Part shown: positions 1 through 32,413 of the stretch, in pieces
How the letters are laid out: each line of letters opens with the position of its first letter
Position numbering within the stretch: the stretch's first letter is position 1
Source of the DNA: Escherichia coli
GTDB taxonomy: Bacteria > Pseudomonadota > Gammaproteobacteria > Enterobacterales > Enterobacteriaceae
Strand: one strand, 5' to 3'
Length of the DNA stretch: 64,000 nucleotides
Assembly (NCBI RefSeq): GCF_048403405.1
Contig: NZ_CP183129.1
The notes under the pieces: model-generated
The model's database searches: none
What the model saw: the letters and a program-made list of their open reading frames with translations, nothing else
What the model was told of the DNA's origin: nothing
Translations under genes and position numbers: made by a program

Positions 1-885
1 ATTTGTCTTCGCTCGCCTCTACGGTACGGGTATCAGTCTGACGCGGCATCGGCGCAGGTGCCCACTCCACCAGACCATCCAGCATATGATCGACGCCGAA
101 GTTACCCAGCGCAGTACCAAAGAATACCGGAGTGATTTCGCCCGCAAGGAACAATTCTTTGTCGAACTCGTTAGACGCGCCTTTCACCAGCTCCAGTTCA
201 TCACGCAGCTGCTGCGCCAGATCTTCACCAACCGCAGCGTCGAGATCCGGGTTATTCAGCCCTTTAACAATACGGACTTCCTGAATGGTGTGGCCTTTAC
301 CGCTCTGATAAAGATAGGTTTCATCTTTATAAAGGTGGTAAACGCCTTTAAACAGCTTGCCGCAGCCAATCGGCCAGGTGATCGGTGCGCAGCCGATTTT
401 CAGCTCGTTCTCAACTTCATCGAGCAGTTCCATCGGGTCGCGGATATCACGGTCAAGTTTGTTCATAAAGGTGAGGATCGGCGTATCGCGCAGACGGGTA
501 ACTTCCATCAGCTTGCGGGTACGATCTTCAACACCTTTTGCGGCGTCGATAACCATCAGGCAGCAGTCCACCGCCGTCAGGGTACGATAGGTATCTTCCG
601 AGAAGTCTTCGTGCCCCGGGGTGTCGAGCAGGTTAACCAGGCAATCGTGATACGGAAACTGCATCACAGACGTAGTAATGGAGATCCCACGCTGCTTTTC
701 CATCTCCATCCAGTCCGACTTAGCGTGCTGGTTGGAACCACGGCCTTTTACTGTACCGGCGGTCTGAATGGCCTGTCCGAACAGCAGCACCTTCTCGGTG
801 ATGGTAGTCTTACCGGCGTCTGGGTGAGAAATAATTGCAAAGGTTCTTCTTTTCGCTACCTCTGCGGCCAAAAGGCTTGTCATAA
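1..885 (-). CDS. prfC: peptide chain release factor 3, partial (3' part runs off window start); first ~16 codons are prophage-derived
   Basis: Minus-strand translation from ATG at 883-885 gives [37 protein letters not shown]..., a GTPase G-domain matching RF3. Confidence 0.93.
822..835. repeat. att core copy (prfC-proximal junction), gggtgagaaataat
   Basis: Identical 14-mer at 49057..49070, about 20/23 identity over the extended repeat; encodes the AIISHP codons of prfC. Confidence 0.6.
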
Positions 886-1043
886 TTGTTGTCTCTTTGA
901 TTATGTACAATCATATGTACAAAGAAAAATTCATGCCGCTGATTGTACATTTTGGAGGTATCAGAGCATAGCAGAACATGATCAGTAGGTGTATTTGTAG
1001 CCAAAGAACATTTGTACATGCAGCAATCTTTGTTCCATTGACA

Positions 1044-1059
1044 CTGTTTATTCATACAG
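1044..1059 (+). promoter_or_regulatory. LexA (SOS) box 1, CTGT-N8-ACAG
   Basis: ctgtttattcatacag upstream of the dinI-like gene. Confidence 0.55.
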
Positions 1060-1071
1060 TTAAAAATAACA

Positions 1072-1087
1072 CTGTATACAAACACAG
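1072..1087 (+). promoter_or_regulatory. LexA (SOS) box 2, CTGT-N8-ACAG
   Basis: ctgtatacaaacacag, 16 bp upstream of the dinI-like start codon. Confidence 0.6.
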
Positions 1088-1102
1088 TGTAGAGGGATTT
1101 TT

Positions 1103-1351
1103 ATGCGTATTGAGATCTGCATAGCCAAAGAGAAAATGACTAAAATGCCAAACGGTGCTGTGGATGCGTTAAAGGAAGAATTAACTCGACGCATCAGTAA
1201 GCGTTATGACGATGTAGAGGTGATCGTAAAAGCCACCAGCAACGATGGCCTTTCTGTTACGCGCACCGCCGATAAAGATTCAGCTAAAACTTTTGTTCAG
1301 GAAACTCTGAAAGATACCTGGGAGTCTGCTGACGAGTGGTTTGTTCACTAA
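1103..1351 (+). CDS. DinI-family DNA-damage-inducible protein (prophage-encoded)
   Basis: 82 aa, MRIEI.IAK...[15 protein letters not shown] resembles E. coli DinI; RBS gaggga; SOS boxes upstream. Confidence 0.85.
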
Positions 1352-1420
1352 TTAACACGTAAAATCGGTAACGGCTGGAAATCATTCAATACTCGCACTA
1401 TCGGAAGTTCACCAGCCAAC

Positions 1421-1458
1421 CGCAGCACGTTCTTGCATACGACGTGTCTGCGGTTTTT
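1421..1458 (+). terminator. putative intrinsic terminator after dinI-like gene
   Basis: Imperfect hairpin cgcagcacg...cgtgtctgcg followed by a T-run. Confidence 0.4.
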
Positions 1459-1777
1459 CAACCATTCAGATACAGCACTCTCATCACATTCATTCTTCCG
1501 CATTAAAGTATATATGACCATATCACCTTAATATTTTTCTTCTTCAGATAAAAATTGTTATCTATGTATACTTTTAAACCGAATCCGTGTAGAGTCTCTA
1601 CCTAAGTTAGTTCACAGCTACCCCTTCAGTTTGCGCCATTAACTTCCTGACTTTTGCCGCTATCTGTAAGCATTCCTGTATACCTGAAACTACAGGGTTC
1701 ATCTACGAACTTTAAGAACACCCAGGATAAAAATTGTCAACTATATTATATATAACACCATACTAATTCGAGGCTAT

Positions 1778-1891
1778 ATGGACAGCATACTGATAATCAC
1801 TTCACTACTTATCATATTCAGCATTTTTAGTCATGCTCTAATAAAATTAGGGGTTGGCATATCCAATAACCCGGACAAAACCGATGTATAA
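1778..1891 (+). CDS. possible small hydrophobic peptide (37 aa)
   Basis: ATG with weak RBS; translation [37 protein letters not shown] has one predicted TM segment; AT-rich context. Confidence 0.25.
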
Positions 1892-1959
1892 GTCAACATA
1901 TCCTGAATCAGACATACAATATTGCAATGAAAACCAATAATATTTTAAGGAATATCTTC

Positions 1960-2193
1960 ATGAAATCAAATGACACCCTAAAGTGGTTCCCCGCGCAGCT
2001 TCCTGAAGTCAGAATTATCCTGGGAGATGCTGTCGTGGAAGTGGCAAAACAGGGAAGACCTATCAATACCAGAACATTGCTTGATTACATTGAAGGAAAC
2101 ATAAAGAAAAAGTCATGGCTGGATAACAAAGAATTATTACAAACAGCGATATCAGTTCTTAAAGACAACCAAAATTTAAATGGTAAAGTGTAA
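1960..2193 (+). CDS. YdfK/YnaE-like prophage cold-shock-associated protein
   Basis: 77 aa from MKSNDTLKWF...; lies next to a PinQ/PinR-like recombinase as in Qin/Rac. Confidence 0.6.
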   Translation: MKSNDTLKWFPAQLPEVRIILGDAVVEVAKQGRPINTRTLLDYIEGNIKKKSWLDNKELLQTAISVLKDNQNLNGKV

Positions 2194-2573
2194 TAAACAC
2201 CCCCTGAAAAATAATTTTTCAATGCATTAAAAAATATCAACAACTACGTTATTCCGCAACAACCTACTTTTTTTACCATTTTTCCACTTTAACAACTTTT
2301 TGCTCCACTTTTCCAAGACCAAACAAATTGAAATCTGGCTAAAACAACATACAACACTATTATTCGTCTTTCTCGAGTCCGCCCGGAGTTCGAAAAACAA
2401 ACCGAGTTAAAGCCATTTTTCAAAAAATCGATTTTAGGTTACACCAAAATTACGGGACTGCATCCAAATTTGTTTATTTTCGAACGTATACATACAAATA
2501 TGTGCAATAATAAGCGAAATAATTTTTGGATATGCATTATGATATGTACACCAATTTCGTATAGAGTCTCACT

Positions 2574-3164
2574 ATGTCTCGAATTTTTGCTTACTGTCGG
2601 ATATCAACTCTGGATCAGACCACCGAAAATCAACGCCGGGAAATCGAAAGTGCAGGCTTTAAAATCAAACCTCAGCAAATAATCGAAGAACACATTAGCG
2701 GCTCAGCAGCAACCAGTGAGCGTCCTGGTTTTAACCGGTTGCTTGCTCGCCTGAAATGTGGTGATCAATTGATTGTGACAAAACTGGATCGCCTTGGTTG
2801 TAATGCAATGGATATCAGGAAAACAGTGGAACAACTGACCGAAACAGGTATCAGAGTGCATTGCTTAGCATTGGGGGGCATTGACCTGACCAGTCCAACA
2901 GGAAAAATGATGATGCAAGTAATTTCAGCAGTCGCTGAATTTGAACGAGACCTTTTACTTGAACGCACTCATTCCGGGATAGTAAGAGCCCGGGGCGCAG
3001 GGAAACGTTTTGGTCGACCACCTGTGTTAAATGAAGAACAGAAACAGGTGGTATTCGAACGAATTAAGTCAGGTGTAAGTATAAGTGCCATTGCCCGGGA
3101 ATTCAAAACCTCGCGGCAAACCATTTTAAGAGCCAAAGCAAAACTTCAGACACCTGACATATAA
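2574..3164 (+). CDS. serine recombinase (PinQ/PinR-like resolvase/invertase family)
   Basis: 196 aa; N-terminal YCRISTLDQ catalytic-serine motif; C-terminal HTH. Confidence 0.85.
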
Positions 3165-3391
3165 AAAATAATCTCGGTGTGAGATGCTTTACGTCTTCCA
3201 AGCCCCCTTCCTTGCCGTAAATGGAAAGATACATCTAATTATAGAATTTATATGTTTTACCCTACGGCAGTGCTGGCCATTCAATATCCTGTGCAGTTGA
3301 CGTATCAACACGGTTCAGCAACACCCGATACTTTTTCCAGGCTTCCAGCAACGGGGTTTCTTCCTCCGTTGCATATACAGCTCACCTTTTT

Positions 3392-3691
3392 TCACCCACG
3401 ATTAACCAACAGCCAGACCAGCAGACACGCCACCACCGGCACAGCAAAATCCATCAGGCTTGCCACATCCCACACGCGCGGATCAAAACCGCCCCACCAC
3501 GGCATGTTAATCCTCTTGCCATGCCCAAACATTTCAATCCAGCGATATTCCGCCTGGGTGTGTTCACGCGCAATGAAGAACGTACAACCGGCTATCGCCC
3601 CGTAAGCCCAGTTCCCGGTAAAAAGACCAACCAGTAGCTGCGCAGCCACAGCACAAAGCGCATGAAGGAAAGGTGTTATATCCATTTTCAT
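3392..3691 (-). CDS. hypothetical small membrane protein
   Basis: About 99 aa with two or three hydrophobic segments, downstream of the tail fiber genes. Confidence 0.45.
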   Translation of the reverse strand: MKMDITPFLHALCAVAAQLLVGLFTGNWAYGAIAGCTFFIAREHTQAEYRWIEMFGHGKRINMPWWGGFDPRVWDVASLMDFAVPVVACLLVWLLVNRG

Positions 3692-3727
3692 CCTACCCAA
3701 TAAAACGGGGCGCTCGGCCCCTTGATA

Positions 3728-4768
3728 TTATTTAGACGCAAGCGCCGCCTCAATTGCAGATAATCTTTGTCTTAATTCTGCGTTTTCTTCTTCCAGTGCT
3801 GTTATTCTGTCGTCTGACTCTCTGGCTACCTGAACAAGCAAGCCAGTAACACCAGAATAATCTACTGTGTAATAACGTTCACCTTCTTCACCTTCCGATC
3901 CGCTTGCGCCGTCCTGATATTTCATTGCGGAACCTACAACTTCTGGGATTGCTTCCAGAGCTTCCTGTGCAATGACACCAGCATAGGGCATACCGTTTTC
4001 TTTAAGCGTGTATGTATAGCCGTTCATTTTACGGATGCGGTCGGTTGCATTATCGATCACCTGAATGTTGTCTTTCAGATCCCGGTCGGAATGCTGGTTA
4101 AATGCGGTGGCATGACATGCACCATTAACGCTTAACATATAGGTGTTATCGGTATTTTTTTGCGCATAGAACATATAAGCGCCACCATCAACACCGACTT
4201 CATAAACAACAGGACGGCTGGAGTTGCCCCACAATTGAGCAGTAACACCAGCATAAGCGGTTCCCTGTGTGTTTAATGTCATGGTTGACCCATGATTGGC
4301 ATATTTGATCTGTAATGTGTCGGTGTAATCAAATTTAATAAGCGCGTTACTTCCACGCTTGCTGTATGACATAAGGCAGTTACCCATTTTGAGGTATCCG
4401 CTGTCACCGGGAAAAATCATCGTACCGCCATAAAGGTTGGTAAAGTCCCAGCAAATGTTTGTCCCGTTATCGTTCAGGTTAAGGCGCGCCATTGCGTTAC
4501 CTGGACTGTCTATCCATTTTTTGAGGTATAGTTCGCAATACGCATCCTCAACACCTGCCGTCCTGTGAGTTGAGCGGAGTTTTCTCCCAAATATAGCTCC
4601 GCTAGTTGGCAATACCTGCTGATACCATGAAGCAGACCAGTCACCAACGATTTCATCTTTGCTGTCTACATATAATTTTGTTGCGTAGCTTCCTTGATCG
4701 TTTTTTAATTTGCTAACGTCGGATTTTAGCGTTTTGATGTCATCAGGAATTACTGTCGATGTAGCCAT
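3728..4768 (-). CDS. tail fiber/receptor-binding protein with C-terminal intramolecular chaperone (peptidase S74-like) domain
   Basis: 346 aa; C-terminal SDRDLKDNI...GYTYTLKENG...ALEAIPEVV followed by a coiled-coil tail, typical of auto-processing chaperone domains. Confidence 0.7.
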   Translation of the reverse strand: MATSTVIPDDIKTLKSDVSKLKNDQGSYATKLYVDSKDEIVGDWSASWYQQVLPTSGAIFGRKLRSTHRTAGVEDAYCELYLKKWIDSPGNAMARLNLNDNGTNICWDFTNLYGGTMIFPGDSGYLKMGNCLMSYSKRGSNALIKFDYTDTLQIKYANHGSTMTLNTQGTAYAGVTAQLWGNSSRPVVYEVGVDGGAYMFYAQKNTDNTYMLSVNGACHATAFNQHSDRDLKDNIQVIDNATDRIRKMNGYTYTLKENGMPYAGVIAQEALEAIPEVVGSAMKYQDGASGSEGEEGERYYTVDYSGVTGLLVQVARESDDRITALEEENAELRQRLSAIEAALASK

Positions 4769-4777
4769 TTTTCTTCC

Positions 4778-5059
4778 TCACATCCAGCCACGAAGTTGAT
4801 GCTCAACAGCAACCACGTATTCATCGAATAATGACGATATTTGCGAATCATTAATGATGCGCACGTTTACAAAATATCCGTCTTCCTTAACACATACCGG
4901 TTCGCCATCTTCAGTCAGTTCTCCGGTTTCTTTGTACACGTTACCTATCACGTCAATAAGAATATCATCCTGCATCAACTCGTCATCATAATAGCCAATG
5001 CTCTCCATAAAGGCCGAAAAGTCGGCCCTGTCGGGAAATTTGAGTGTTAAATCTTTCAT
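4778..5059 (-). CDS. hypothetical acidic protein (93 aa) between the fiber genes
   Basis: ORF overlaps the stf stop by 1 nt, suggesting translational coupling. Confidence 0.5.
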   Translation of the reverse strand: MKDLTLKFPDRADFSAFMESIGYYDDELMQDDILIDVIGNVYKETGELTEDGEPVCVKEDGYFVNVRIINDSQISSLFDEYVVAVEHQLRGWM

Positions 5060-7440
5060 TAGATTGACTCCCCCACCTGAGCATCAGTCAATGCCTTGTG
5101 CCATATTCTGAAATTCCTTACATGACCAAATAAATGACGTAACCCGGCTGTAGTCTGGCCTCCAATACGGATAATTGCGGTGTTCTGAATACAGGACCAT
5201 GTGGTTTTTGTTTCGCTGGATATACGCCCGTTACTTACTGCGCATGTAGACTGATCAGACTTTACACGCATCCCCATAACCATTTTTTCAAGTGATGCAT
5301 TTTCGTTTATCCGTCTGTTAGACCCACCAATATCGCAATAAGGAAATCCGTCGTAATCTGCTGAAGAACCGAAGCCAAGAATAATAGCCGCTCCGGTTTG
5401 ATGACCGCCGGTATCAAAAACACGCGGTGCTGCATTTGGCGTTTTATACCAGTTCTTATGTACCTCACAAAGAACCGTAAAAGGAAGATTATAAAGATTA
5501 TTCTTAATGGGAACTGTGACTATATCGCTTGCGCGGGTCGCCGCCGTCGTTCCTGATATAATAAAAGATGATACACAAGGCCCATTTTCTACTTGTGGGG
5601 TGGCCAGATAAATATAGTCACCAGATACGGTTGCCCCGCCCTGCTTAGGAGAATACTGTATCTGAGAACCTATTTTTAACTCCCCATCAATTGCCTGAAT
5701 TGTTGCCTCTGCAAAAATCCATCCGATAACTTCGTCCTTTCTGACTCTCGCTGTAATCCTTGAGGCAGCGCCGCCTGTCATATTAATTTCAAGCGTTTGT
5801 GTATCAATATACACATCACCAAGAAAAGTTGTTGCGCTACCGTCATATTTATCAAATCGGATACGCAACCTTACCTGCAGTTCTGTTTTAAAACGACATG
5901 AGGTTGTCACGTATTTATTATCGCCTGAGACATCAACTGACTTTGTTGCAGCAATTGATGCCATATTAATGGCTGAGGTTTGCCCAATCAGAGAATCGTT
6001 ACAGACAAACTTTCCATAGGTAAAACCAAAACTATCCGTCCCGGTTTCGGGAACATCCATATTTGACGATCGCCCCCAACTGGCAGGGCTTTCCGAATTG
6101 AGCATGTAGTTCGTTCTTTGCCCCTCAATAAGCAGGCCATCACGTTCAAACCGTGGCTCGTCAATGGCAGCCTCTGTCAGCACACCAGATTTATTAATAT
6201 AGGTTGCTTTCGATGCGCGTTTAAACTTAACAACCTTGTCGCCAGGCATCGTTATTTCATCATCACCAATAACAATCTTTTTATATGACGGCGAAAAGCC
6301 CGTAATCATATCCAGCGAATCGTTAAATGGTATCCACACATCAGGCAGCGGCTGTAAGACATATTTATACGGCTCCGCAGCCTGGCTTGCGTACTCTCTG
6401 GCTGCATCTTCGCTTGCTTTAGCTGCCGTCTGGCTTGCTGCCGATGCTTTCGCTGAGTTCGCAGCCGCTGTTTCGCTCACCTTTGCGTTGGTTTCACTGG
6501 TTTTTGCTGCTTTTTGACTGTTAGCTGATGCAGTGGCAGAAGCAGCAGCCGCGCTTGCAGAACCAGCTGCAGCACTCTCGCTTTCGGCTGCTGCATCCTG
6601 ACTGCTTTTCGCCGCAGTTTCGCTGGCTTTGGCATTCGTTTCGCTGGTCTTCGCTGCCGTCTGGCTGGACTTTGCGTTAGTTTCACTCGTCTTCGCTGCT
6701 TTCTGACTGTTAGCCGCAGCAGTTGCTGATCCAGCAGCTGAAGTCGCAGAACCGGCTGCCGCGCTCTCGCTTTCGGCTGCTGCATCCTGACTGCTTTTCG
6801 CCGCAGTTTCACTGGCTTTGGCATTCGTTTCGCTGGTTTTCGCTGCCGTCTGGCTGGACTTTGCGTTGGTTTCGCTCGTCTTTGCGGCTGTCTCGCTATT
6901 TTTCGCGTTGGTTTCTGATTTTTTGGCTGCTGTCGCGGAGTTTTCTGATGCAGTCTGTGAGGTCGCTGCCGCCTGTGCACTATTAGCTGCATTCGTTTCT
7001 GAGGTTTTCGCCGCGTTCTTCGATGATGCCGCTGCAGTTTCGGATTTCTTTGCCGCCGCTGCGCTCTGAGAGGCGGCTTCGGCGTTGCGTGCCGCTTCTT
7101 CCACCATTTCCTCAAAACGACGCAATGCCTCCGGCATGACATCATCTTCCGTCATGGCACCGAGAAAATCATTCAGCGTACCTGGTCTGGAACCTTCATA
7201 GACGGTAATGGTTCCGGCATGTGAAGGCGGAAAACCTTCAACAAGCAGGATAACGCTGTACTGGCCATACTCAACATCCATGCTGTAACGCCCGGCTTCA
7301 TCCGGATTTTCAGAGGCCACCGTGTTCACCAGTACCGTGGTGCTGTTACGCTTTGCCTTCAGTTGAATAGTGCAGTTCTGTATTGGTTTTCCCGCACCAT
7401 CTTTCAGCACACCTGAGATTTTTACTGCTGCCATATCCAC
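5059..7440 (-). CDS. stf: side tail fiber protein (lambda Stf-like N-terminus, Ala/Ser/Thr-rich repeats, distinct C-terminal domains)
   Basis: N-terminus MAAVKISGVLKDGAGKP..NCTIQLKA matches lambda Stf; C-terminus ends GHVRNFRIWHKALTDAQV (lectin/LamG-like motif). Confidence 0.85.
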   Translation of the reverse strand: MDMAAVKISGVLKDGAGKPIQNCTIQLKAKRNSTTVLVNTVASENPDEAGRYSMDVEYGQYSVILLVEGFPPSHAGTITVYEGSRPGTLNDFLGAMTEDDVMPEALRRFEEMVEEAARNAEAASQSAAAAKKSETAAASSKNAAKTSETNAANSAQAAATSQTASENSATAAKKSETNAKNSETAAKTSETNAKSSQTAAKTSETNAKASETAAKSSQDAAAESESAAAGSATSAAGSATAAANSQKAAKTSETNAKSSQTAAKTSETNAKASETAAKSSQDAAAESESAAAGSASAAAASATASANSQKAAKTSETNAKVSETAAANSAKASAASQTAAKASEDAAREYASQAAEPYKYVLQPLPDVWIPFNDSLDMITGFSPSYKKIVIGDDEITMPGDKVVKFKRASKATYINKSGVLTEAAIDEPRFERDGLLIEGQRTNYMLNSESPASWGRSSNMDVPETGTDSFGFTYGKFVCNDSLIGQTSAINMASIAATKSVDVSGDNKYVTTSCRFKTELQVRLRIRFDKYDGSATTFLGDVYIDTQTLEINMTGGAASRITARVRKDEVIGWIFAEATIQAIDGELKIGSQIQYSPKQGGATVSGDYIYLATPQVENGPCVSSFIISGTTAATRASDIVTVPIKNNLYNLPFTVLCEVHKNWYKTPNAAPRVFDTGGHQTGAAIILGFGSSADYDGFPYCDIGGSNRRINENASLEKMVMGMRVKSDQSTCAVSNGRISSETKTTWSCIQNTAIIRIGGQTTAGLRHLFGHVRNFRIWHKALTDAQVGESI
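6511..6888. repeat. tandem direct repeat, 189-bp period (about two copies), inside stf
   Basis: ctcgctttcggctgctgcatcctgactgcttttcgccgcagtttc occurs at about 6577 and 6766; protein repeat AAKTSETNAKSSQTAAKTSETNAKASETAAKSSQDAAAESESAAAGSA. Confidence 0.8.
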
Positions 7441-7498
7441 TCCACAAAAAAGCCCGCCTGAACCGGCGGGCTGTCATAACACTGTGTTACCTGGCTAA

Positions 7499-8098
7499 TC
7501 AGAATTTATAACCGACACCCACGATGAAACCGTCAGTGCGCCAGTCACCACTGCCGGAACCTTCATAAGCAAGGTCAATGGCCACGGATTCGGTCGGGTT
7601 AAACTGCACGCCAGCCCCCCACGCCAGAGACGTGTTGCTGTGGCGACCGTCATCACTTCCGGTCAGCACATCGTGCGTTTTCCCCTTGTTGTCAGTTACG
7701 CGGAGATAATCCCCGGAGAAGGTCGACACACGGCTGTAAGCCATACCCGCCATCGCATAAGCACTGAACCATTCATTCACGCGTACAGATGGCCCCGCCA
7801 TCATGCTGAACCAGCGGTTACGCACGGAATCTTCATGCCAGCGGGTATCGCTGTAATGCGTTTTTTGCTCATCTTTGGCATTGGCATAACTGAATGACGT
7901 CACCAGCCCCAGCGTGTCCGTAAATTCATAACGGTATTTCACGTTAATGCCCTTCAGGTCATCACTGCCTGGCATATCAGTATGGGTCTGAAGATACCCG
8001 GCGCTTAGTGTGGACTGATGCTCTGCTGCGCTCGCTGGCGTACCAGCGGCAACCAGCCAGACTACTGCGGACAGAATAACAGCACATAATTTACGCAT
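7499..8098 (-). CDS. lom: Lom outer membrane protein (Ail/Lom family)
   Basis: 199 aa with signal peptide, C-terminal ...GVGYKF; position after J as in lambda. Confidence 0.9.
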   Translation of the reverse strand: MRKLCAVILSAVVWLVAAGTPASAAEHQSTLSAGYLQTHTDMPGSDDLKGINVKYRYEFTDTLGLVTSFSYANAKDEQKTHYSDTRWHEDSVRNRWFSMMAGPSVRVNEWFSAYAMAGMAYSRVSTFSGDYLRVTDNKGKTHDVLTGSDDGRHSNTSLAWGAGVQFNPTESVAIDLAYEGSGSGDWRTDGFIVGVGYKF

Positions 8099-8165
8099 AA
8101 TTACCTCTCGCTTTTCTGCAATAAAAAAGGCGTCATTTCTGACGCCCGTATTGGGGTTATAAAAT

Positions 8166-11100
8166 TCAGCTGATACTGATGCCTGCGGTGGCTTTCTTCA
8201 TCACCACAACCAGCAAATCGCTGATACTTGCTGTGGGATACCAGTCATTTACCAGCCATGCTGACACCGAAAACTCCAGCGTCATGTGACCGTGACCGGC
8301 AGGCATATCAATAACGCCACTGTAAATCAGCGTATTATCCAGCGCGGTACGGTTATAAATTTCAGCACCGTTTTTCCGCACTATCAGACGGCATGAGGAG
8401 TAAATATCAGTATGCTCTCTCTCATGTTTAGCGCCGCTGAATGCCACCGCCGGAATAACAATCTGCCGGTCAAACGGCTGATCGTCATAAATCCTGACGG
8501 TAATGGTCCCTGATGGCCACCGTTCCGGTGCACGGGAGTCCCGGGGGAAAGCTTTGCCCACTGTTTTAACGAGATCGCCTTCAATCTGGTTCGCGGACAG
8601 TTTTCCCAGAACCCGGCAGTTCTCGTTAATCGTGACGTTGTTGAGCGTCCCGGAGTTCGCATTCACGTTACCGCTGATATCGGCATTTTTCGCCGTCAGC
8701 CGCCCGTCCGGTGTCAGGGAAAATGCCGGAGGATTACCGCCGCTGGTAATGGTGGGAGCCGTCAGATATTTCAGGAACACTTCATTCATAAATATCTGAT
8801 CGCCCTGACCAACAAACATCGGCTTTGTGTTGCCATTCGCAGGATTAACCATCGCAATCCTGTCCGCCGCCAGCAGCACCTGACTCTGCATACCGTCAGG
8901 AGTATTCTCAATACCGGCACCAATACCCGCGATATAAAGGCGTCCGTCCTGCATCTGCTGCAGCTTCACAGCCCACATGCTGTTCAGGTTATTATTTGTA
9001 TCAACCTGAACCTTCTGTATCTGCTGAATTACCGCACTCTGGTCTTCCAGTTTATTATTGACGGTCTGCGTGATTTCATTGCTGACATCCGTAATGGACG
9101 TCCTGATTTCAGCCAGGTCAGGCGCAAGCTGACCGTTATCAATCTGCGTCCACAGCTCCTGAGCCAGATGGCTTTTCCCTATCTCGCCTTTGAAAAAATC
9201 CAGATAGCCGGATGCATCATCACTCGGCTGGCCAACAGCCTCCACAAATGCCGATTTGCCAACGGTGTTCACACTGCGGATGTAAAAATAATAATCATGG
9301 CCCGGTTTGATATTGATACTGGTGGCTATCCAGTACAGCGCCGTGCCAAGATAGCGGGCTGTGGTTTCAACCTGCCTGATATCGGTAATCCGCGTTTCCG
9401 AGAACCAGAACTCAAACTGTACCGTCGGATCATAAACCGCAAGATGCGGCGTGGCAGTTATCTGAAAATAGCCCGGCGTCAGCTCAATCCGCGACGGCGC
9501 TGCCGGTGCGGCAATCCGGAACGATACCGATGCCGGATCGCCCTGCTGTCCCCACGCATTTACCGCCCGGACCGTCAGCGTGTAACGCCCCAGCGCCAGT
9601 TGCCTGAAGCGGTATGTGGTTTCCGTCGTCCTGGCCGTGCTGACCAGCCGCTCACTGCCGTCGTCCGCTGCCACGGTCAGGCGAAGCAGGAAGCTCACGC
9701 CCTTCACCACCTTCGGCGTGTCCCAGCGGGCCAGTACCTGATACTCCCCGCTGTCTGCGGTGACTTCGGCAGTCAGGTGCTGCACCGCTGGCGGCGTGAC
9801 ACCATTCACCGTGCCGCTCTGGTCACCGTCAAAGTGCGCCCCGTTATCCACGATGGCTTCTTTCTCCGGTACATGCTGCACGGCGGTGATGGCATACGTG
9901 CCATCGTCGTTCTCACGGATACTCACACAGCGGAACAGGCGCTGGCGCAGCGTCGGCAGCTTCAGCCCCCATACGCTGTATTCAGCAACACTGTCAGGAA
10001 CACGGCTCACTTTTACCTTCACGCCGTCGGTGACGGACTGAACCTCCACGCTGACCGGATTGCCACTTCCGTCAACCAGGCTTATCAGCGTGGTACCGGA
10101 GGATGGCAGCGTGATTTCACGGTCGAGCGTCAGCGTCCGGGTCTGGCTGTTCACCGCCAGTACACGACCACCGGTGCTGATACCGGCATAGTCATCATCA
10201 CAGATTTCAATAACATCGCCCGGTACATGGCGAAGCCCTTCTGCGCCGACGCTGAAATCCACGGTCTGCGTTTCCAGCAGTTCCGTTTTAATCAGCCACA
10301 GCCCGGCGCGGTGTGCCTGCCCCCGGCTGGTACAGCCAAAGGCATCCATCTTCGTGACGTTACGACCGTAACGGGCAATGGCCTGCGTGTCCTCCACAAG
10401 CTCTGTCGCCGTCTCCCAGCCGTTGTTCGGGTCAATCCAGTTCACCTCAACGGCATTATGGCGGTCCTTCAGGGCGCTGAAGCTGTAGCGGAACGGCGCG
10501 CCATCATCCGGCATCACCACATTACTGCGGTTATAGGTCCACACCTTATCCGACGGTCGGTCCTGCACGAATGTCAGCGTCTGCCCGTTCCATACCGGCA
10601 TACAGCGCATCGCCGAGCAGAAATCACTGAGCACATCCCACGCCTTGCGCTGTGTGGCCAGGTACGCATTACAGGTGATGCGCGGCTCCGTGCCGCCAAA
10701 ACCATCCGGCACCGACTGGTCGCAATACTGGCTGATGACATACAGCGCCCATTTATCCACATCTGCCGCACCAAGACGTTTCCCCATGCCGTAGCGCGGA
10801 TGGGTCAGCATATCCCACAGACACCAGGCCATGTTGTTGCTGTATGCTGGCTTAAACGTTCCGTCCCAGATACCGCTGTATTGCCGCGTCTGCGGGTTAT
10901 AGTTCGACGGCACCTGCAGAATGCGCCCGCGAAGATGATAATTACGGCTCACCTGCTGGCTGCCGAACTGCTCCGAATCCACCTGCACGCCGACCAGTGC
11001 CGTGTTCGGGTAGCACTGTTTCACATCGATGATTTCGGTGTATGACGACCAGAGCGTTTTGTTCTGCAGCTGGTCTGTGGTGCTGTCCGGCGTCATTCTG

Positions 11101-11645
11101 CGCATCCGGATATTAAACGGGCGCGGCGGCAGGTTATCCACCACCACCGAGGCCAGATACTGTGAGGTGGTTTTGCCCTTAATGGTGATGTCTTTTTCCG
11201 TCACCCAGCCACCATTACGCTGTATCTGAACCAGCAGGCGAACTTCCGACAGATTCCGGTCCCCCTTTGAGGTGGTTTCCACCAGTGCCTGCACACCGAA
11301 GGTAAAGCGCAGACGGTCGATGTTTGCAGACGTGATGGTCCGGGTAATCGGCGTGTCGTACTTCACTTCCGTACCCAGCACCGTCTCGGAGCCGGAGGAT
11401 TCAAATCCCTCCGGCGGTGTCTGCTCCTGCTCACCTGCCCGGAACACCACCGTGACACCGGAGATATTGGTATTCCCCTCACTGTCCAGCACTGGCGTAC
11501 TGTTCAGCAGCACACTTTTTAATCCGTCCACCGGACCTTCAACCGGCCCTTCACTGATGGCGTCTATCACGCTCAGCATCTGGGATGATTTCAGGTTGTC
11601 CTTCGCTTCGCGCGGGGTATGCCCCTTACTGCTGCCTTTACCCAT
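8166..11645 (-). CDS. J: tail tip / host specificity protein J
   Basis: 1159 aa, lambda J-like throughout. Confidence 0.95.
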
Positions 11646-11705
11646 TCGTCATGATCCATAAACGATAAAACCGCCCGGAGGCGGTTTCACATAAAACATT
11701 TTGCA

Positions 11706-12377
11706 TCAGCGACCAATCACCACAACCTGACCACCATCCCCTTCGTCTGCCGTGCTGATCTCCTGAGAAATCACGCGTGACCCCACGCGCATTTCACCGT
11801 ACAGAACGGGCAGAACATTCCCCTGGGCAACCATGTTATCCAGTGAGGAGAAATAGGTGTTCTGCTTACCGTTATCCGTTGTCTGTGTGCGGGGAGTTCT
11901 GGCTTTCGGTGCCAGCATCTGAGCCACACCACCGAGCACCATACTGGCACCGAGAGAAAACAGAATGCCGGTCATACCACCGGCACCAATGGCTGCCCCC
12001 CATGCTGCAAGGGTGGCTCCGGCGGTAAAGAATGATCCGGCAATGGCGGCTGCTCCCAGGACAATCTGGAATACACCACCTGACTTGGCCCCGGCGACTC
12101 TGGGAACAATATGAATCACAGCGCCATCAGGCAGAGTCTCATGTAACTGCGCCGTTAATCCGGACGTGCTGACGTCCCGCCCGGCAATCCGTACCTGATA
12201 CCAGCCGTCGCTCAGTTTCTGACGAAACGCCGGGAGCTGTGTGGCCAGTGCGCGGATGGCTTCAGCCCCCGTTTTCACACGAAGGTCGATGCGGCGGCCA
12301 AATCGTTGCAAATCCCCGTAAAGGCAGATGCGTGCCATTCCCGGTGACGCCAGAGGGAGTGTGTGCGTCGCTGCCAT
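11706..12377 (-). CDS. I: tail assembly protein I
   Basis: 223 aa, lambda I-like; overlaps K. Confidence 0.9.
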   Translation of the reverse strand: MAATHTLPLASPGMARICLYGDLQRFGRRIDLRVKTGAEAIRALATQLPAFRQKLSDGWYQVRIAGRDVSTSGLTAQLHETLPDGAVIHIVPRVAGAKSGGVFQIVLGAAAIAGSFFTAGATLAAWGAAIGAGGMTGILFSLGASMVLGGVAQMLAPKARTPRTQTTDNGKQNTYFSSLDNMVAQGNVLPVLYGEMRVGSRVISQEISTADEGDGGQVVVIGR

Positions 12378-13018
12378 TTGTCGGTATACCTCTCTCGTTT
12401 GCTCAGTTGTTCAGGAATATGGTGCAGCAGCTCGCCGTCACCACAGTAAATGGCGGCATGATTCGGCACCGATGAACCAAAGCAGCACAGCAGCACGTCG
12501 CCAGGCTGCGCCTCTGTCAGTGCGACACGGTAAAAACCAGTCGCCTCCATATTGTCAAGATAGAGATTCTGACCGTTACGCCACCAGTCATCCCCGCGAT
12601 GAAAATCCGGCATCTCAATCCCCGCCAGATGATAAGCATCCCGGAACAGCGTGTAACAGTCCGTCACCCCGTGCTCAAAGCGACGCCCGGTGAGATGCGG
12701 CACACAGCGGAACTTGTGAATCGCCCCCCGGCAGACCAGCCACCACGGCAAATCACTCTGCACCTGCAGCCGCCGGTCAGCCTCACTCAGCCAGGGCAGA
12801 CCACCGGGATGACTGTGGACCAGTGCCACAATCTCACCCTGCATCTCTGCCTGCAGCCAGTCCTCCGGAGCCATCCGGAAATAATCCTCCGGCTCACCGG
12901 AGATATTCACGCAGGGAAAATATCTTTCCCCCTCCGGCGTGCTTACCACGAAGCCGCACGACTCCGCTGGCGCACATCGCCGGGCGTGCGCCAGAATCGC
13001 TGATTCTGTCTCTGTCAT
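12275..13018 (-). CDS. K: tail assembly protein K (NlpC/P60 and JAB-like)
   Basis: Start set at MTETESAIL (internal to the longer ORF); HSHP motif. Confidence 0.85.
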   Translation of the reverse strand: MTETESAILAHARRCAPAESCGFVVSTPEGERYFPCVNISGEPEDYFRMAPEDWLQAEMQGEIVALVHSHPGGLPWLSEADRRLQVQSDLPWWLVCRGAIHKFRCVPHLTGRRFEHGVTDCYTLFRDAYHLAGIEMPDFHRGDDWWRNGQNLYLDNMEATGFYRVALTEAQPGDVLLCCFGSSVPNHAAIYCGDGELLHHIPEQLSKRERYTDKWQRRTHSLWRHREWHASAFTGICNDLAAASTFV

Positions 13019-13022
13019 GGGA

Positions 13023-13721
13023 TTACTGCGAAAGTTTGTTAATGGAAAGGAAGCCGCCAAAGTTGCCGACGTTATTGCGGAACTTACAGCCACTCAGGCA
13101 TTTGCTGCATTTATCCTTCGTGATATCGAACGTCGGCTGGTCATATTCATCCGCGACCGCCGGACCGCTATAACCGCACTCATCACCGCGATAGGTCCAG
13201 GTGCAGGTGTTGGCCAGCATGATGCGCCCCGGAAAAACAGCACCATCCGTTTCCGTCGGCGTGGACAACACAAAGGAGGCACTGACCGCGCTCAGTTCGC
13301 TGCACTGCTCGACGCGCCAGCGGCTGATCACCTCCTGCTCCGGATCGGCATCGCTGTTTCCGTTGACGAAATTCACCGCATCCAGAAAACGGGCGTAAAC
13401 CTTACGCCTGACCACCGTTCCGCCGACCAGACTCTGCAGATCTTCCACCATCCCGGTGACCATACCGTACAGGTTAGAAACCGTCAGCGTGGGGCGCGTA
13501 CTGGCGCCTTTGCCATTCAGTTCAAAACCGCTCCCCTGAATGGGATACGGCTGATACTGTCGCCCCTGCCAGGTGACCGGCTCACCTTTTTCGTTCTGCT
13601 CATTACAGAAAAAATAACGCTCTCCACCGACCTCTGTCAGATCGATTTCCCAGAGCACCACGCTGGCCGACTGCTCCGCACGGGTGCATTCATTCAGTGT
13701 TTCCTGTTGGATATCCTGCAT
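13023..13721 (-). CDS. L: tail tip protein L
   Basis: 232 aa, lambda L-like with cysteine cluster. Confidence 0.95.
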   Translation of the reverse strand: MQDIQQETLNECTRAEQSASVVLWEIDLTEVGGERYFFCNEQNEKGEPVTWQGRQYQPYPIQGSGFELNGKGASTRPTLTVSNLYGMVTGMVEDLQSLVGGTVVRRKVYARFLDAVNFVNGNSDADPEQEVISRWRVEQCSELSAVSASFVLSTPTETDGAVFPGRIMLANTCTWTYRGDECGYSGPAVADEYDQPTFDITKDKCSKCLSGCKFRNNVGNFGGFLSINKLSQ

Positions 13722-14050
13722 CAGTTCACCACCTGTTCAAACTCTGCGCTGAACTCAACACGCAACATACTGACCCGCGACGACCATTTTGCGCAGGTCA
13801 CCTTTATCTGCCGGTAGCCATAAGGCGGCGTCCACAGAAAGGCCTTCCAGCCCCCGTGCTCAGCCAGAAACGACTCCAGCGCCGCGGCCTCCCAACGGGG
13901 AACAGAAAGCGTCACGCTGTACGTTTTCAGGTCAGTGTTCAGCCCGGCAGGCGCTCGCTGGGAATAGCCATCACCAAAGCGCACCTTTCTTACGGAAGGG
14001 GCCGAAGCCACATCCATACCGGGTTTCACTTTCCAGCGGAAGGTTTTCAT
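13721..14050 (-). CDS. M: tail tip protein M
   Basis: 109 aa, lambda M-like. Confidence 0.95.
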   Translation of the reverse strand: MKTFRWKVKPGMDVASAPSVRKVRFGDGYSQRAPAGLNTDLKTYSVTLSVPRWEAAALESFLAEHGGWKAFLWTPPYGYRQIKVTCAKWSSRVSMLRVEFSAEFEQVVN

Positions 14051-16608
14051 CGTCCACCTCCGGAGAACAGACCACCATCGCGCATCTGCCCGGTCACAAC
14101 ATCCATTGCCGCCTTACGGGCTACGTCATAAACAGCCTTCAGCGCCTGTGGCCCTATCTGACCGTTCGTGCCGTCGTTGTTAATCACCACATGGTTATTC
14201 TGCTCAAACGTCCCGGACGCCTGCGACCGGCTGTCCGCCATGCTGCCCGGTGTACCGACATAACCACCGGTGGCATAGCCGCGCATCAGCCGGTAGAGAT
14301 TCCCCACGCCAATCCGGCTGGTTGCCTCCTTCGTGAAGACAAATTCACCACGGTGAACAATCCCCGCAGGCTCATATTTGCCGCCGGTTCCCGTAAATCC
14401 CCCGGTCGCAAAATGGAATTTCGCCGCAGCTGCCTGAATGGCTGTACCGCCTGACGCTGATGCGTCACCACCGACAGCACCGCCAATGACACTGCCCACA
14501 CTCCCGACGATCCCCACCATTGCCTGCTTAAGCAGAATTTCTGTCATCATGGACAGCACGGAACGGGTGAAGCTGCGCCAGTTCTGCTCACTGCCGGTCA
14601 GCATCGCCGCCATATTCTGCGCAATACCATCAAAGGTCTGCGTGGCTGCACTTTTAACCTGCGACATACTGTCCGTGGCACTCTCTTTCCACTCGCTCCA
14701 GCCGGACCTGAGGCCTGCCATCCAGTTCCCGCGAAGCAGGTCTTCAGCCGCCCAGGTCTTTTTCTGCTCTGACATGACGTTATTCAGCGCCAGAGGATTA
14801 TCGCCATACTGTTCCTTCAGGCGCTGTTCTGTGGCTTCCCGTTCTGCCTGCCGGTCAGTCAGCCCCCGGCTTTTCGCATCAATGGCGGCCCGTTTTGCCC
14901 GTTGCTGCTGTGCGAATTTATCCGCCTGCTGCGCCAGCGCGTTCAGGCGCTCCTGATACGTAACCTTGTCGCCAAGTGCAGCAAGCTGGCGTTTGTACTC
15001 CAGCGTCTCATCTTTATGCGCCAGCAGGGATTTCTCCTGTGCAGACAGCTGGCGACGTTGCGCCGCCTCCTCCAGTACCGCGAACTGACTCTCCGCCTTC
15101 CACAAATCCCGGCGCTGCTGGCTGATTTTCTCATTTGCTCCGGCATGCTTCTCCAGCGTCCGGAGTTCTGCCTGAAGCGTCAGCAGGGCAGCATGAGCAC
15201 TGTCTTCCTGACGATCGCCCGCAGACACCTTCACGCCGGACTGTTTCGGCTTTTTCAGCGTCGCTTCATAATCCTTTTTCGCCGCCGCCATCAGCGTGTT
15301 GTAATCCGCCTGCAGGATTTTCCCGTCTTTCAGTGCCTTGTTCAGTTCTTCCTGACGGGCGGTATATTTCTCCAGCGGCGTCTGCAGCCGTTCGTAAGCC
15401 TTCTGCGCCTCTTCGGTATATTTCAGCCGTGACGCTTCGGTATCGCTCTGCTGCTGCGCATTTTTGTCCTGTTGAGTCTGCTGCTCAGCCTTCTTTCGGG
15501 CGGCTTCAAGCGCAAGACGGGCCTTTTCACGATCATCCCAGTAACGCGCCCGCGCTTCATCGTTAACAAAATAATCATCCTTGCGCAGATTCCAGATGTC
15601 GTCTGCTTTCTTAAACGCAGCCTCTGCCTTAATCAGCATCTCCTGCGCGGTATCAGGACGACCAATATCCAGCACCGCATCCCACATGGATTTGAATGCC
15701 CGCGCAGTCCTGTCTGCCCAGGTCTCCAGCGTGCCCATGTTCTCTTTCAGGCGGCGGGTCTGGTCATCAAACCCTTTCGTTGCGGCCTCGTTCGCCGCCT
15801 GCAATGCCCCGGCTTCATCGCCGGAACGCTGCAACTGAGCAACATACGCAATCTGCTCCGCCGTCACGTTATGGAACTGGCGTGCCATCGCCGTCAGCCC
15901 CGACGTCGGGTCTGTGGTCAGCTTCCCGAAGGCTTCAGCGACCTTGTCCACCTCCACGCCGGATGCAGAGGAGAAACGCGCCACACTCTGGCTGATGGAC
16001 GCAATCTGAGCCTCACCGCTTACCCCCGCCTTAACCAGTGCGCTGAGTGACTCGCTGGTCTGGTTAAACGTCAGCCCTGCCGCCTGCCCGGCTCTGGACA
16101 GGACCAGCATACGATCTGCCGTCAGTCCCGCCTGATTGCCGGAAAGGACCAGCGTTTTGTTGAAATCGGACAGGGTTGAGTTGCCCTGATACCAGGCATA
16201 CGCCAGTGCACCGGTCGCCACCGCCAGCGAGGTGGCCCCCACCATCGGCAGGGTGATCGCACCGGCAAGCCCCCTGAACATGGGGATCATCCCGCCGAAG
16301 GAGTCCTTCACCTGCCCCCCCTGTTGCAGCAGGATGAGCCACGGATTCTGCCCCCCTGCAAGCTGCGTGGCCACGTCGGTGAACTGTGCAGGCAGCATAC
16401 GCATGGCGGCTTTATACTGCCCGACGGAAATCCCCGCTTTCTGTGCAGCCAGCGCCTGTCGGCTCAGCGACTGTTCAACGACTGCCGCTGTTTTTTTCGC
16501 ATCACTTTCCGTACCGGAAAAATGACGCCTGACTCTGGCCATCTGCTCGTCAAATCTGGCCGCATCCAGACTCAAATCAACGACCAGATCGCCTACCGGT
16601 TCAGCCAT
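14047..16608 (-). CDS. H: tail tape measure protein H
   Basis: 853 aa, lambda H-like. Confidence 0.95.
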   Translation of the reverse strand: MAEPVGDLVVDLSLDAARFDEQMARVRRHFSGTESDAKKTAAVVEQSLSRQALAAQKAGISVGQYKAAMRMLPAQFTDVATQLAGGQNPWLILLQQGGQVKDSFGGMIPMFRGLAGAITLPMVGATSLAVATGALAYAWYQGNSTLSDFNKTLVLSGNQAGLTADRMLVLSRAGQAAGLTFNQTSESLSALVKAGVSGEAQIASISQSVARFSSASGVEVDKVAEAFGKLTTDPTSGLTAMARQFHNVTAEQIAYVAQLQRSGDEAGALQAANEAATKGFDDQTRRLKENMGTLETWADRTARAFKSMWDAVLDIGRPDTAQEMLIKAEAAFKKADDIWNLRKDDYFVNDEARARYWDDREKARLALEAARKKAEQQTQQDKNAQQQSDTEASRLKYTEEAQKAYERLQTPLEKYTARQEELNKALKDGKILQADYNTLMAAAKKDYEATLKKPKQSGVKVSAGDRQEDSAHAALLTLQAELRTLEKHAGANEKISQQRRDLWKAESQFAVLEEAAQRRQLSAQEKSLLAHKDETLEYKRQLAALGDKVTYQERLNALAQQADKFAQQQRAKRAAIDAKSRGLTDRQAEREATEQRLKEQYGDNPLALNNVMSEQKKTWAAEDLLRGNWMAGLRSGWSEWKESATDSMSQVKSAATQTFDGIAQNMAAMLTGSEQNWRSFTRSVLSMMTEILLKQAMVGIVGSVGSVIGGAVGGDASASGGTAIQAAAAKFHFATGGFTGTGGKYEPAGIVHRGEFVFTKEATSRIGVGNLYRLMRGYATGGYVGTPGSMADSRSQASGTFEQNNHVVINNDGTNGQIGPQALKAVYDVARKAAMDVVTGQMRDGGLFSGGGR

Positions 16609-17439
16609 ACCGGACTCCTCCTGCGATCCCTTCTGATACTGTCATCAGCATTACGTCATCCTCCGTCATGTCCGCCACATCCGGGGAAGCGGAGATAACT
16701 TCATTCCCGTCCGGGCCAAAGCGGACACCTCCGGCAAGCCCTGCCGCTTTCTGCATCAGCACATCATCTTCAGGCTCTTCGTCAGCCTCGCGCCGGTTCA
16801 GCAGACTGAAATCCAGCGGATGCATATCCGGATCGCTGAAAAACAGGCTGAGCACGGTGTACGTCAGCCCGGAAAAGTGCATATCCAGCAGAACATCATG
16901 AAAATAATGGGTACTGTAAAAACGGTGCCAGTCGGCATACTCCGTGGATGACATCCCGGCAAGCATGGCACGCCAGTCGGGTCGCCCCATCTCACGCGCC
17001 AGTTTCAGGGCAAAACTCAGCTCACCGTCGAACACTTTCCCGCAGAAACAGGCTCTGCGGGCCCGGCGTCCTCTGTCTGTTCAGGGGCATTATTCACAAC
17101 AAACTCATACATACCGGACAGCCGGTACACCACGTTTTCAGCATGAGAAATTGCCTCTGTAGGCCAGGTGGTAAGCACTTCCTGCTCAATCTGTTTAACG
17201 GCTTCATTCATGGAAGGCATCTGCGTCTTCTGCGGATGGTTATGCCACAGGGACATCGCTACCACAAAAGCACCGGTTCTGATGGCGTCTTCCACAGTAA
17301 ACTTCCGGTTGCTGTCTGACTCCGCCTGTTCTGCCTGCCGTTTCATCAGGGCGAGATGCTCAATACGCTGCAGGGCTGACAGTTCAGAAAGCGTGACGGT
17401 CACACCGTTATGTTCAAATGATTCGGTTTTCAGGAACAT
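16601..17439 (-). CDS. tail assembly chaperone G-T (programmed -1 frameshift fusion)
   Basis: T frame ORF 16601..17035 overlaps the G 3' end; slippery GGGAAAG present. Confidence 0.8.
17017..17439 (-). CDS. G: tail assembly chaperone G
   Basis: 140 aa, lambda G-like. Confidence 0.9.
   Translation of the reverse strand: MFLKTESFEHNGVTVTLSELSALQRIEHLALMKRQAEQAESDSNRKFTVEDAIRTGAFVVAMSLWHNHPQKTQMPSMNEAVKQIEQEVLTTWPTEAISHAENVVYRLSGMYEFVVNNAPEQTEDAGPAEPVSAGKCSTVS
17033..17039 (-). other. slippery heptamer G GGA AAG for the G-T -1 frameshift
   Basis: Plus-strand ctttccc, 14 nt upstream of the G stop. Confidence 0.7.
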
Positions 17440-17454
17440 CTCTGACTCTCCGGA

Positions 17455-18195
17455 TTAACTGGCGGTGACGGTGATTTCTGCAACCGCAGCAAACTCACCA
17501 TTACCGGATACGACCGGAATGTTGACCTTACCTGCAGCAACGCCATTCACGGTGATGGTCATACCACTGACCGACACGGTGGCTTTTGTTTTATCCGCTG
17601 ACACCGCACGGAAGCTCTTGTCGGTTGCGCCTTCCGGCTGGAATGCCACGGTCAGCGTGGTGCTCTTCCCTTTCACTACGGAAGCGCTGGCTGGCGTCAC
17701 GGTCATACCGGTTGCCGCTGTTACCGTGCTGCGTTCTTCTGCCATCGACGGACGTCCCACATTGGTGACTTTCACCGTGCGGGTGATCACTTCCTTCGCC
17801 GTCACCGCCTTACCGATACTGCTGACCCAGCCACGGAACACATCGACCGTGCCGTTCGGGAAGCGGATTTTATAGGCACGGGTATCGCCTTCATTAAACC
17901 ACGCCAGCAGCGCCTGCTGCCCCTGCTCTCCGGGCATCCACGCCAGCGTGAAGCTGGTATCTCCGGCAGATTTCTGCCCCTGCCCGGTCGCGGTCCAGTC
18001 TGCATCTTCATCATCGAGATAGCTGTCGTCATAGGACTCAGCGGTCAGTTCGCCGGGCGTCAGGTCTTTAACTTTAGCCAGACGCGACCAGTCAACGTCT
18101 GAAAGCGGGTTCGCATAAGGGTCACCGTTCCCCTTATAAACCCACAGGGTGGTCCCGGCCCCTTTCACCGGCATTACTGGATTTGGTACAGGCAT
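17455..18195 (-). CDS. V: major tail protein V
   Basis: 246 aa, lambda V-like with C-terminal Ig-like domain. Confidence 0.95.
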
Positions 18196-18203
18196 ATCGT
18201 CCT

Positions 18204-18212
18204 CACATTTCA
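18204..18212. repeat. IS1 target-site duplication, left copy (cacatttca)
   Basis: Identical 9-mer at 18981..18989. Confidence 0.9.
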
Positions 18213-18267
18213 GGTGATGCTGCCAACTTACTGATTTAGTGTATGATGGTGTTTTTGAGGTGCTCCA

Positions 18268-19950: not shown

Positions 19951-19961
19951 ACATCCCCCTT

Positions 19962-20315: not shown

Positions 20316-20326
20316 AGCGCCTCCCG

Positions 20327-20725: not shown

Positions 20726-20766
20726 GGACTTCTCCACAGAGAGACAATGGCCCCGAAGGGCCATGA

Positions 20767-21792: not shown

Positions 21793-21847
21793 AAATTATT
21801 TCCATAAAAAAAGCCGCACAGGCGGCCTTTGTTGATGAAGGGGAAGA

Positions 21848-22180: not shown

Positions 22181-22189
22181 AACTGCCTC

Positions 22190-23521: not shown

Positions 23522-27202
<3,681 letters not shown>

Positions 27203-32409: not shown

Positions 32410-32413
32410 TGAA

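Follow-up and report, generated by a model that had tools for sequence, protein, structure and literature searches.

In the 64,000-nucleotide stretch of Escherichia coli DNA analysed here (contig NZ_CP183129.1, hereafter the window), the start of prfC, the gene for RF3, occurs twice. How did prfC acquire a second start, and what does the arrangement mean for its expression? A first-pass annotation of the letters alone had proposed that a prophage replaced the gene's 5' end. Our results show that tyrosine-integrase recombination inserted a temperate, lambda-like phage, one of the cdtI/2H10/Stx1a-prfC group, in prfC codons I18-P22, and that the exchange took place between a 14-bp core of the phage attachment site (attP) and the identical prfC bases where the P-loop (G1) motif begins. 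The features at the two junctions are the following.

1..883, minus strand: 5' part of the hybrid prfC (RF3), an open frame of 294 codons that runs off the left window end and is host-derived from 835 downwards
822..835, no strand: attachment (att) core copy on the prfC-body side (attR in phage convention), exact 14-bp repeat
836..883, minus strand: phage-encoded surrogate 5' coding sequence, 16 codons, contiguous with int in the free phages 2H10, cdtI and Ayreon
836..49056, no strand: lambda-like prophage, 48.2 kb, by its match to PhiR63_1 and 2H10
49047..49121, minus strand: stranded native prfC 5' end, 22 host codons plus two phage codons (NN) and a stop, by translation
49057..49070, no strand: att core copy on the int/yjjG side (attL), exact 14-bp repeat
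49122..49210, minus strand: putative native prfC leader/promoter region, now pointing into the prophage towards int (candidate TTGCCT-15-TAAAAT)
49211..49888, minus strand: yjjG, which encodes pyrimidine 5'-nucleotidase and lies upstream of prfC in the host, an open reading frame (ORF) annotated as yjjG in empty-site genomes

The 14-mer GGGTGAGAAATAAT has exactly two copies in the window, at 822-835 and 49057-49070, where none was expected from 100 shuffles. Both lie within prfC coding sequence, as first proposed. Identity between the copies ends at either edge of the 14 bp, and the Ala codon just beyond the core differs between them (GCA versus GCC). The core covers the codons for I-I-S-H and extends two bases into that for P, at the start of the RF3 P-loop (SHPDAGKT). 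Joining positions 1-835 to 49071 onwards rebuilds an empty prfC-yjjG junction that is 100% identical to strain B1.H1.39 and is found in 4717 of 5426 complete E. coli genomes, counting those with at least 80% of the site length present. Joining 49056 to 822 rebuilds a 517-nt attP, which is contiguous in the free phages 2H10 (99.6%), cdtI (96.1%) and Ayreon (95.9%); the match to 2H10 and cdtI spans 100% of the 517 nt. The rebuilt empty site and the contiguous attP confirm that the repeat stands at the boundaries of the insert. The junction in the window is identical to that of strain MS 69-1, and the phage-specific 205 bases at 836-1040 adjoin prfC in 699 of the 5426 genomes, nearly all at 95% identity or more. 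These 699 carriers make up almost all of the 707 genomes without an intact empty site.

A duplicated gene start could also have arisen without any att duplication, by rearrangement in the host or as a gene-conversion tract, or be an artefact of the assembly. The duplication by itself, and nothing further, speaks for such an origin, to which we give practically no credence: it is refuted by the junction shared among 699 complete genomes, by the reciprocal empty site in 4717 others and by the contiguous attP of sequenced free phages, and the same architecture recurs in other genera.

Translation of 49121..49047 yields the K-12-type prfC start that had been placed beside yjjG, about 48 kb from the gene body. 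It adjoins yjjG, just upstream of the phage integrase, and a stranded prfC start upstream of int was also present in 42 of 80 species-representative genomes. At the other junction, positions 883..1 translate on the minus strand with no stop, and RefSeq annotation of MS 69-1, where the locus is identical, gives prfC as an intact gene of 1587 nt. The hybrid RF3 has 528 aa, one residue fewer than the native protein, and the change is limited to the first residues, native residues 1-8 (MTLSPYLQ) being replaced by MTSLLAA. Alignment with unlysogenised prfC-yjjG regions, a check put forward in the first-pass annotation, places MTLSPYLQ and not MTSLLAA at the start of the gene in empty-site genomes. 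Among the RF3 starts compared, from Xenorhabdus, Pseudomonas, Shewanella (MSGNKVEVDKRRTF) and Acinetobacter (MSFKQELAAQVAQRRTF), the residues that are replaced vary in sequence and length across genera and a 10-residue stretch is invariant. The locus has the hallmarks of gene-end replacement, with an att core inside the coding sequence and an in-frame copy of the displaced end, brought by the element, that restores a full-length ORF. The surrogate is contiguous with int in the free phages, and the phage does supply the start codon, the first 16 codons and the leader. The coordinates, peptides and 16-codon count reported earlier were right to within a base or two.

The exchange can be followed on the parts of the attachment site that flank the core.

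884..1050, minus strand: P' arm and hybrid prfC leader, with a weak Shine-Dalgarno (SD)-like AGAGA and TGTACA at 904, 916, 944 and 1013
47603..48826, minus strand: tyrosine integrase of 407 aa whose transcription leads away from the att site (PHROG 1, E=3e-74)
48827..49056, minus strand: P arm between core and int, with TGTACA at 48836, 48866, 48875 and 48887 and no terminator-like site

On the minus strand of the free phage, the order is P' arm, a mini-ORF mimicking the prfC start, 225 bp of P arm, and int; the mini-ORF is ~230 bp upstream of int and shares its strand. On integration this mini-ORF is divided at the core. The part with the leader (~170 bp of P' arm), the weak SD element, the ATG and 16 codons is joined in frame to the prfC body, and the native promoter, ribosome-binding site and 22 codons come to stand in its place in front of int.

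Comparison of the phage and host codons for the peptide EVAKRRTFA revealed differences at 8 of 27 bases, all of them synonymous; none of 200000 random placements of eight substitutions kept the peptide. Among the most divergent lysogens and phages, the sole variation in the 48-nt surrogate is a synonymous GCA/GCC change. The ATG, the frame and the SD-like element are retained in every phage and lysogen examined, and prfC is annotated as intact in all lysogens inspected. Across cdtI, Ayreon and divergent lysogens there is hardly any variation in the leader and the proximal P' arm; the distal flank (~1005-1045) does vary. Because all eight base differences are synonymous and the surrogate is near-invariant, the sequences argue that it is the surrogate peptide, beyond mere DNA, that is conserved, which fits a translated, functional hybrid.

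With the integration at the prfC codons and the in-frame surrogate start shown, we consider it probable that the hybrid gene is functional and driven from the P' arm, and that two LexA boxes upstream of it serve a divergent dinI-like gene alone. By analogy with the conjugative element SXT, the hybrid prfC would be transcribed modestly and roughly constitutively from signals in 884-1050, and a phage-borne promoter is plausible on the same grounds. Transcription from the host yjjG/prfC region would now enter int; such read-through is probable because no terminator-like site was seen between the native prfC leader and int. Promoters were sought with a consensus scan and with a position weight matrix (PWM) scan set against shuffled sequence. 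The consensus scan found nothing for the hybrid prfC, and neither scan gave a convincing promoter for int. The best candidate in the native prfC leader, TTGCCT-15-TAAAAT, is marginal (score 9.3, below the 95th percentile of shuffles). Read-through from the phage late operon into prfC was considered as another source of transcripts in the lysogen and is unlikely, given a terminator-like hairpin after the tail-fibre gene (3707-3721) and three intervening plus-strand genes.

Several points weigh against a functional, P'-arm-driven hybrid. Between 884 and 1110, no sigma-70-like site on the prfC strand scores above 7.6, which is below the median of 9.8 for the best sites in shuffled sequence; the SD-like element, at -2.9 kcal/mol, is weak, although the native element (-1.6 kcal/mol) is weak too. 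That every change is synonymous could be due in part to the surrogate having been captured from a functional prfC of another host, and not to selection within the phage. In the literature searched we found no expression data for a phage-type hybrid prfC; Ogura 2007 states that its expression is unknown (PMC2323221), and Bobay 2013 places prfC among genes 'disrupted' by prophages (PMC3603311), a label that is qualified by the intact hybrid frame. Finally, the first-pass annotation took prfC to be essential, which it is not: delta-prfC strains are viable and in routine use (PMC2791158), and a silent hybrid would therefore be tolerated.

These same points, namely the missing recognisable promoter, the weak SD, the dispensability of prfC (PMC2791158, PMC2323221), its place in the list of disrupted genes and its expression being given as unknown, are what favour reading the integration as an effective knock-down or knock-out. 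The hybrid ORF would then be intact on paper and poorly transcribed or silent, and the attP mini-ORF would be kept because the integrase needs prfC-like DNA around the core and not for RF3 rescue. We regard this as possible but unlikely. Beyond the core the amino acids are kept as the bases change, whereas a constraint on DNA recognition would lead one to expect the reverse. The retention of the ATG, frame and SD-like element in all phages and lysogens examined and the intact annotation of every inspected lysogen also stand against it, and SXT and the dusA elements, which are of the same design, do express the hybrid gene (PMC8409611). For SXT, the hybrid prfC is reported to be expressed from element-borne signals (PMC8409611).

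The two LexA boxes had led the first-pass annotation to suggest that prfC may come under prophage-derived control. They belong to a small module on the opposite strand.

1038..1087, plus strand: SOS-type promoter of the dinI-like gene, with the -35 at 1038-1043, LexA box 1 at 1044-1059, the -10 at 1062-1067 and LexA box 2 at 1072-1087
1103..1351, plus strand: DinI-like gene, divergent from prfC (NCBIfam NF007893, E=3e-20, below the equivalog cut-off; PHROG 189 DinI, E=4e-31), named 'DinI-like family protein' by RefSeq

The boxes are real: two perfect CTGT-N8-ACAG sites lie 161-204 bp upstream of the hybrid prfC ATG (883), and there are six such sites in the window against 0.67 expected. A LexA-repressed prophage promoter, making the RF3 level SOS-dependent, would fit this distance, and a very weak minus-strand candidate (TACACT-17-TATTTT, score 7.5) overlaps the boxes; that candidate, however, falls below the shuffle median. 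The plus strand carries a far stronger promoter, TTGACA-18-AAAAAT, which matches the consensus at 10 of 12 positions (PWM score 12.4). LexA box 1 fills its spacer and box 2 lies just downstream, 15 nt before the dinI-like ATG (1103). Homology among the prfC phages stops at ~1050, within box 1. In Ayreon and Ayreon-type lysogens the surrogate and P' arm are identical and no LexA box is present within 3.4 kb; 46 of the 699 lysogens are without the dinI junction. The idea that LexA controls prfC is thus unsupported, since the boxes belong to the dinI-like promoter and are absent from Ayreon-type lysogens with the same surrogate; SOS-dependent RF3 is, in our judgement, quite improbable. The boxes seem to regulate just the divergent dinI-like gene, an SOS-controlled phage module of standard type, as in Gifsy-1 (PMC13090387).

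Some further observations concern this module and LexA-type sites. The other four CTGT-N8-ACAG sites are at 14541-14556, 37210-37225, 40894-40909 and 60004-60019; the one at 37210 (CTGTTCATAAATACAG) is in the prophage early region and could mark another LexA-controlled phage gene. On the plus strand at ~1405-1450, ~50-100 bp past the end of the dinI-like gene, a GC-rich hairpin with a T run (ccgcagcacgt...acgtgtctgcgg ttttt) probably serves as terminator for dinI, and it has a close counterpart near the Gifsy-1 left end (L085, ~245-290). An Rfam match to CssrB at 1421-1558, which overlaps this hairpin, reached 24 bits against a gathering score of 76 and was treated as chance; the Rfam search of both junctions gave nothing else.

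The integrase that made the exchange is a tyrosine recombinase of the IntSXT/P4-like subgroup, with an arm-binding N-terminal domain and a catalytic R-K-H-x-x-R-H-Y domain. Its homologues bear PF13356, PF22022 and PF00589, and the catalytic residues R240, K267, H341-x-x-R344, H366 and Y375 are invariant in an alignment of 19 sequences (A1). It is 99.8% identical to the integrase of 2H10, 97.3% to that of Ayreon and 96.6% to those of the Stx1a/Stx2c phages at prfC. Eight of the 14 copies of the palindrome TGTACA in the window fall in the att arms (904-1018 and 48836-48892), and GTACA-type repeats stand at the same position before int in Salmonella, Xenorhabdus, Shewanella and Pseudomonas relatives (including L086, L088, L089 and L091). 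These repeats are probably arm-type integrase binding sites. The extended form ATGTACAA precedes the ATG of int by 10 bp and that of the hybrid prfC by 21 bp, and in both places it overlaps the best -10-like hexamer.

The body of the prophage is that of a lambda-like phage. Both halves match PhiR63_1/2H10 at 95-98% identity over ~80-90% of their length, and the matches cover tail, portal, terminase, replication and integrase genes. Near int lies the excisionase gene.

46127..46321, plus strand: excisionase (Xis/AlpA-like), convergent with int (PHROG 1553, E=6e-36)

Between xis and int, a 239-aa ORF of unknown function (46598-47317, minus strand; PHROG 8440) sits in a 30% G+C island; it has no NCBIfam match, and PADLOC assigned it to no defence family. 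The interval looks like a cargo hot spot because cdtI carries a different, larger ORF there. Towards the other end, a Pin/Gin-like recombinase gene (2574-3164, plus strand) adjoins a truncated tail-fibre-assembly gene and tail-fibre genes (3252-11645), calls that follow the RefSeq annotation of the identical MS 69-1 locus. This region is possibly an invertible host-range segment.

Does the integrase family prefer such targets more widely? A scan with the integrase alignment, taking one genome per species, returned 80 loci at 43-98% identity. In 42 of these, int is preceded on its own strand, at a distance of 196-235 nt, by a truncated prfC start that ends in AI(I/V)SHP; the sources are Enterobacterales, Pseudomonas, Acinetobacter, Shewanella, Burkholderiales and alphaproteobacterial metagenome-assembled genomes. 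Another six (L231, L234, L236, L242, L243, L244) have a truncated lepA start (IRNFSIIAHI) ~190-220 nt upstream of int. Three loci have too little upstream sequence to judge, and 29 have neither remnant. In these 29, no translational-GTPase-like or other short gene-start remnant is evident and the targets look heterogeneous. The following loci belong to this class.

Relatives with neither remnant: L184, L199-L218, L223-L229, L232, L233, L237 and L241; also L094

They are 45-53% identical to the integrase, mainly from Xenorhabdus, Photorhabdus, Pantoea and Morganella, and they sit after assorted genes (trkA in Morganella), so that their target specificity differs. A neighbour-joining integrase tree, which is without support values, suggests more than one target switch. 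In most elements (L175-L254), the DNA after the crossover brings a stop within 0-4 codons (for example AAT AAT TAA, AAT ATT TGA or GAC ATT ACC CTC TGA), and the stranded host start and the free-element mini-ORF therefore both end almost at once.

Gifsy-1 of Salmonella provides the nearest phage integrase outside the prfC group (46.6% identity). Its attP (NC_010392.1; L084 1972-1992 joined to L085 1-30) encodes MKNIRNFSIIAHIDN*, a surrogate start for LepA (EF4). The crossover falls on lepA P-loop codons paralogous to RF3 AIISHP, int has the same position and orientation as in the prophage, and close to the opposite end there is a dinI-like SOS module (PMC13090387). Gifsy-1 differs in its target, lepA (EF4), and in its arm repeats, which are of the TGTCCA type and not TGTACA. 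Across these sequences, one integrase family targets the DNA that codes for the P-loop in two paralogous translational GTPases, that of prfC and that of lepA; in the literature searched, we found no paper linking the two as paralogous target sites.

These observations invite a wider reading, in which the integration is a reciprocal exchange of promoters with regulatory consequences. In the free phage, the signals in front of the mini-ORF would also read into int; in the lysogen they would drive RF3, and the host yjjG/prfC promoter would read into int. With ATGTACAA sites next to both starts and across the best -10-like hexamers, Int could control its own expression and the level of RF3 as well. 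On the same reading, the integrase clade may be specialised for 5' P-loop-coding DNA of translational-GTPase paralogues, always with a decoy gene start. We hold this combined reading only tentatively and think it rather unlikely. If true, it would tie the fidelity of translation termination to lysogeny.

What the locus means depends in part on how common it is. About 13% of complete E. coli genomes (699/5426), including enterotoxigenic E. coli H10407, O145 and other pathogens, have a phage-supplied RF3 start, and RF3 expression in these lysogens would depend on phage DNA. The wider pattern, in which one integrase family uses prfC P-loop codons in gamma-, beta- and alphaproteobacteria and the paralogous lepA codons, is of modest evolutionary interest. 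It would be of some value to learn if the hybrid prfC is expressed, by what means, and what regulatory meaning its promoter exchange with int may have.

Compared with known systems, the prophage is a typical member of a described phage group. It shares with cdtI (AB285204), 2H10, Ayreon and the Stx1a and Stx2c phages a closely similar integrase (96.6-99.8%), the insertion point and lambda-like structural genes, and with cdtI, 2H10 and Ayreon an identical attP module with the same mini-ORF. A cdtI-type integrase, an attP contiguous in free phages, and lambda-like virion and replication genes are all present. The prfC lambdoid phages differ in cargo alone: here there is no cdt or stx, and the prophage instead has the dinI-like gene, ydfK, the Pin-like invertase and the AT-rich 239-aa ORF between xis and int. 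Scans of viral contigs with the integrase, alone and then as an alignment, returned just 97-100% identical E. coli prophages, mostly cut at int. In contrast to lambda, int is the immediate neighbour of the att site, and its transcription runs outwards from there. Earlier papers already report the insertion site, the changed N-terminus and the parallel with SXT, and the finding itself is not novel. [quoted passage not shown] The replaced start has thus been known since 2007, and since 1999 for SXT, where it is credited to Hochhut and Waldor 1999 in a passage of PMC8409611.

A close parallel outside phages is SXT/R391. Smyshlyaev 2021 placed the cdt1-phage and SXT integrases in one prfC-targeting cluster (PMC8138268), and the SXT integrase is in the same subgroup as that of the prophage (PMC8138268). 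A metagenome scan with the published SXT left-end primer (PMC8386438) gave 24 contigs; the primer had no match in the other loci examined here. In 22 of the 24 left junctions, a host-specific RF3 start is followed by identical element DNA after the same conserved residues. SXT therefore crosses over on the same prfC codons (AIISHP), and its P arm also has GTACAA repeats, as the prophage arms do. Two contigs, L263 and L268, share the SXT-type left junction and the first ~200 bp, then diverge from the SXT-type locus L257; no integrase homologue was found within 2.6 kb, and they may be other elements using the SXT att site. In contrast to the prophage, SXT is a conjugative element, and its int (L257) is separated from the core by ~870 bp and reads towards the junction, whereas the prophage int points away. 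Expression of SXT int is SetCD-dependent, from Ps003 (PMC4344509), and the host prfC promoter therefore does not feed it. Near-identity of IntSXT defines the SXT/R391 family (PMC2791158), and the SXT-type Int of L257 is 38% identical to the Int in the window. The conserved conjugative backbone of 52 core genes (PMC2791158) is lacking, as judged from the near-complete phage coverage, no tra-gene search having been run. The prophage resembles SXT in its action on the target but is no member of the SXT family.

Other gene-end-replacing elements follow the same principle. Phage 21 and e14 at icd also have an att core in coding sequence and a replacement gene end that keeps the ORF length (PMC3603311). 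They differ in replacing the 3' end, so that no promoter or ribosome-binding site needs to be supplied. The dusA elements (such as IMEVchUSA3) differ in target gene; they too insert at the 5' end of a conserved gene and restore the frame with a new N-terminus (PMC8409611); by lacZ fusions, they bring in a new, weaker promoter (PMC8409611).

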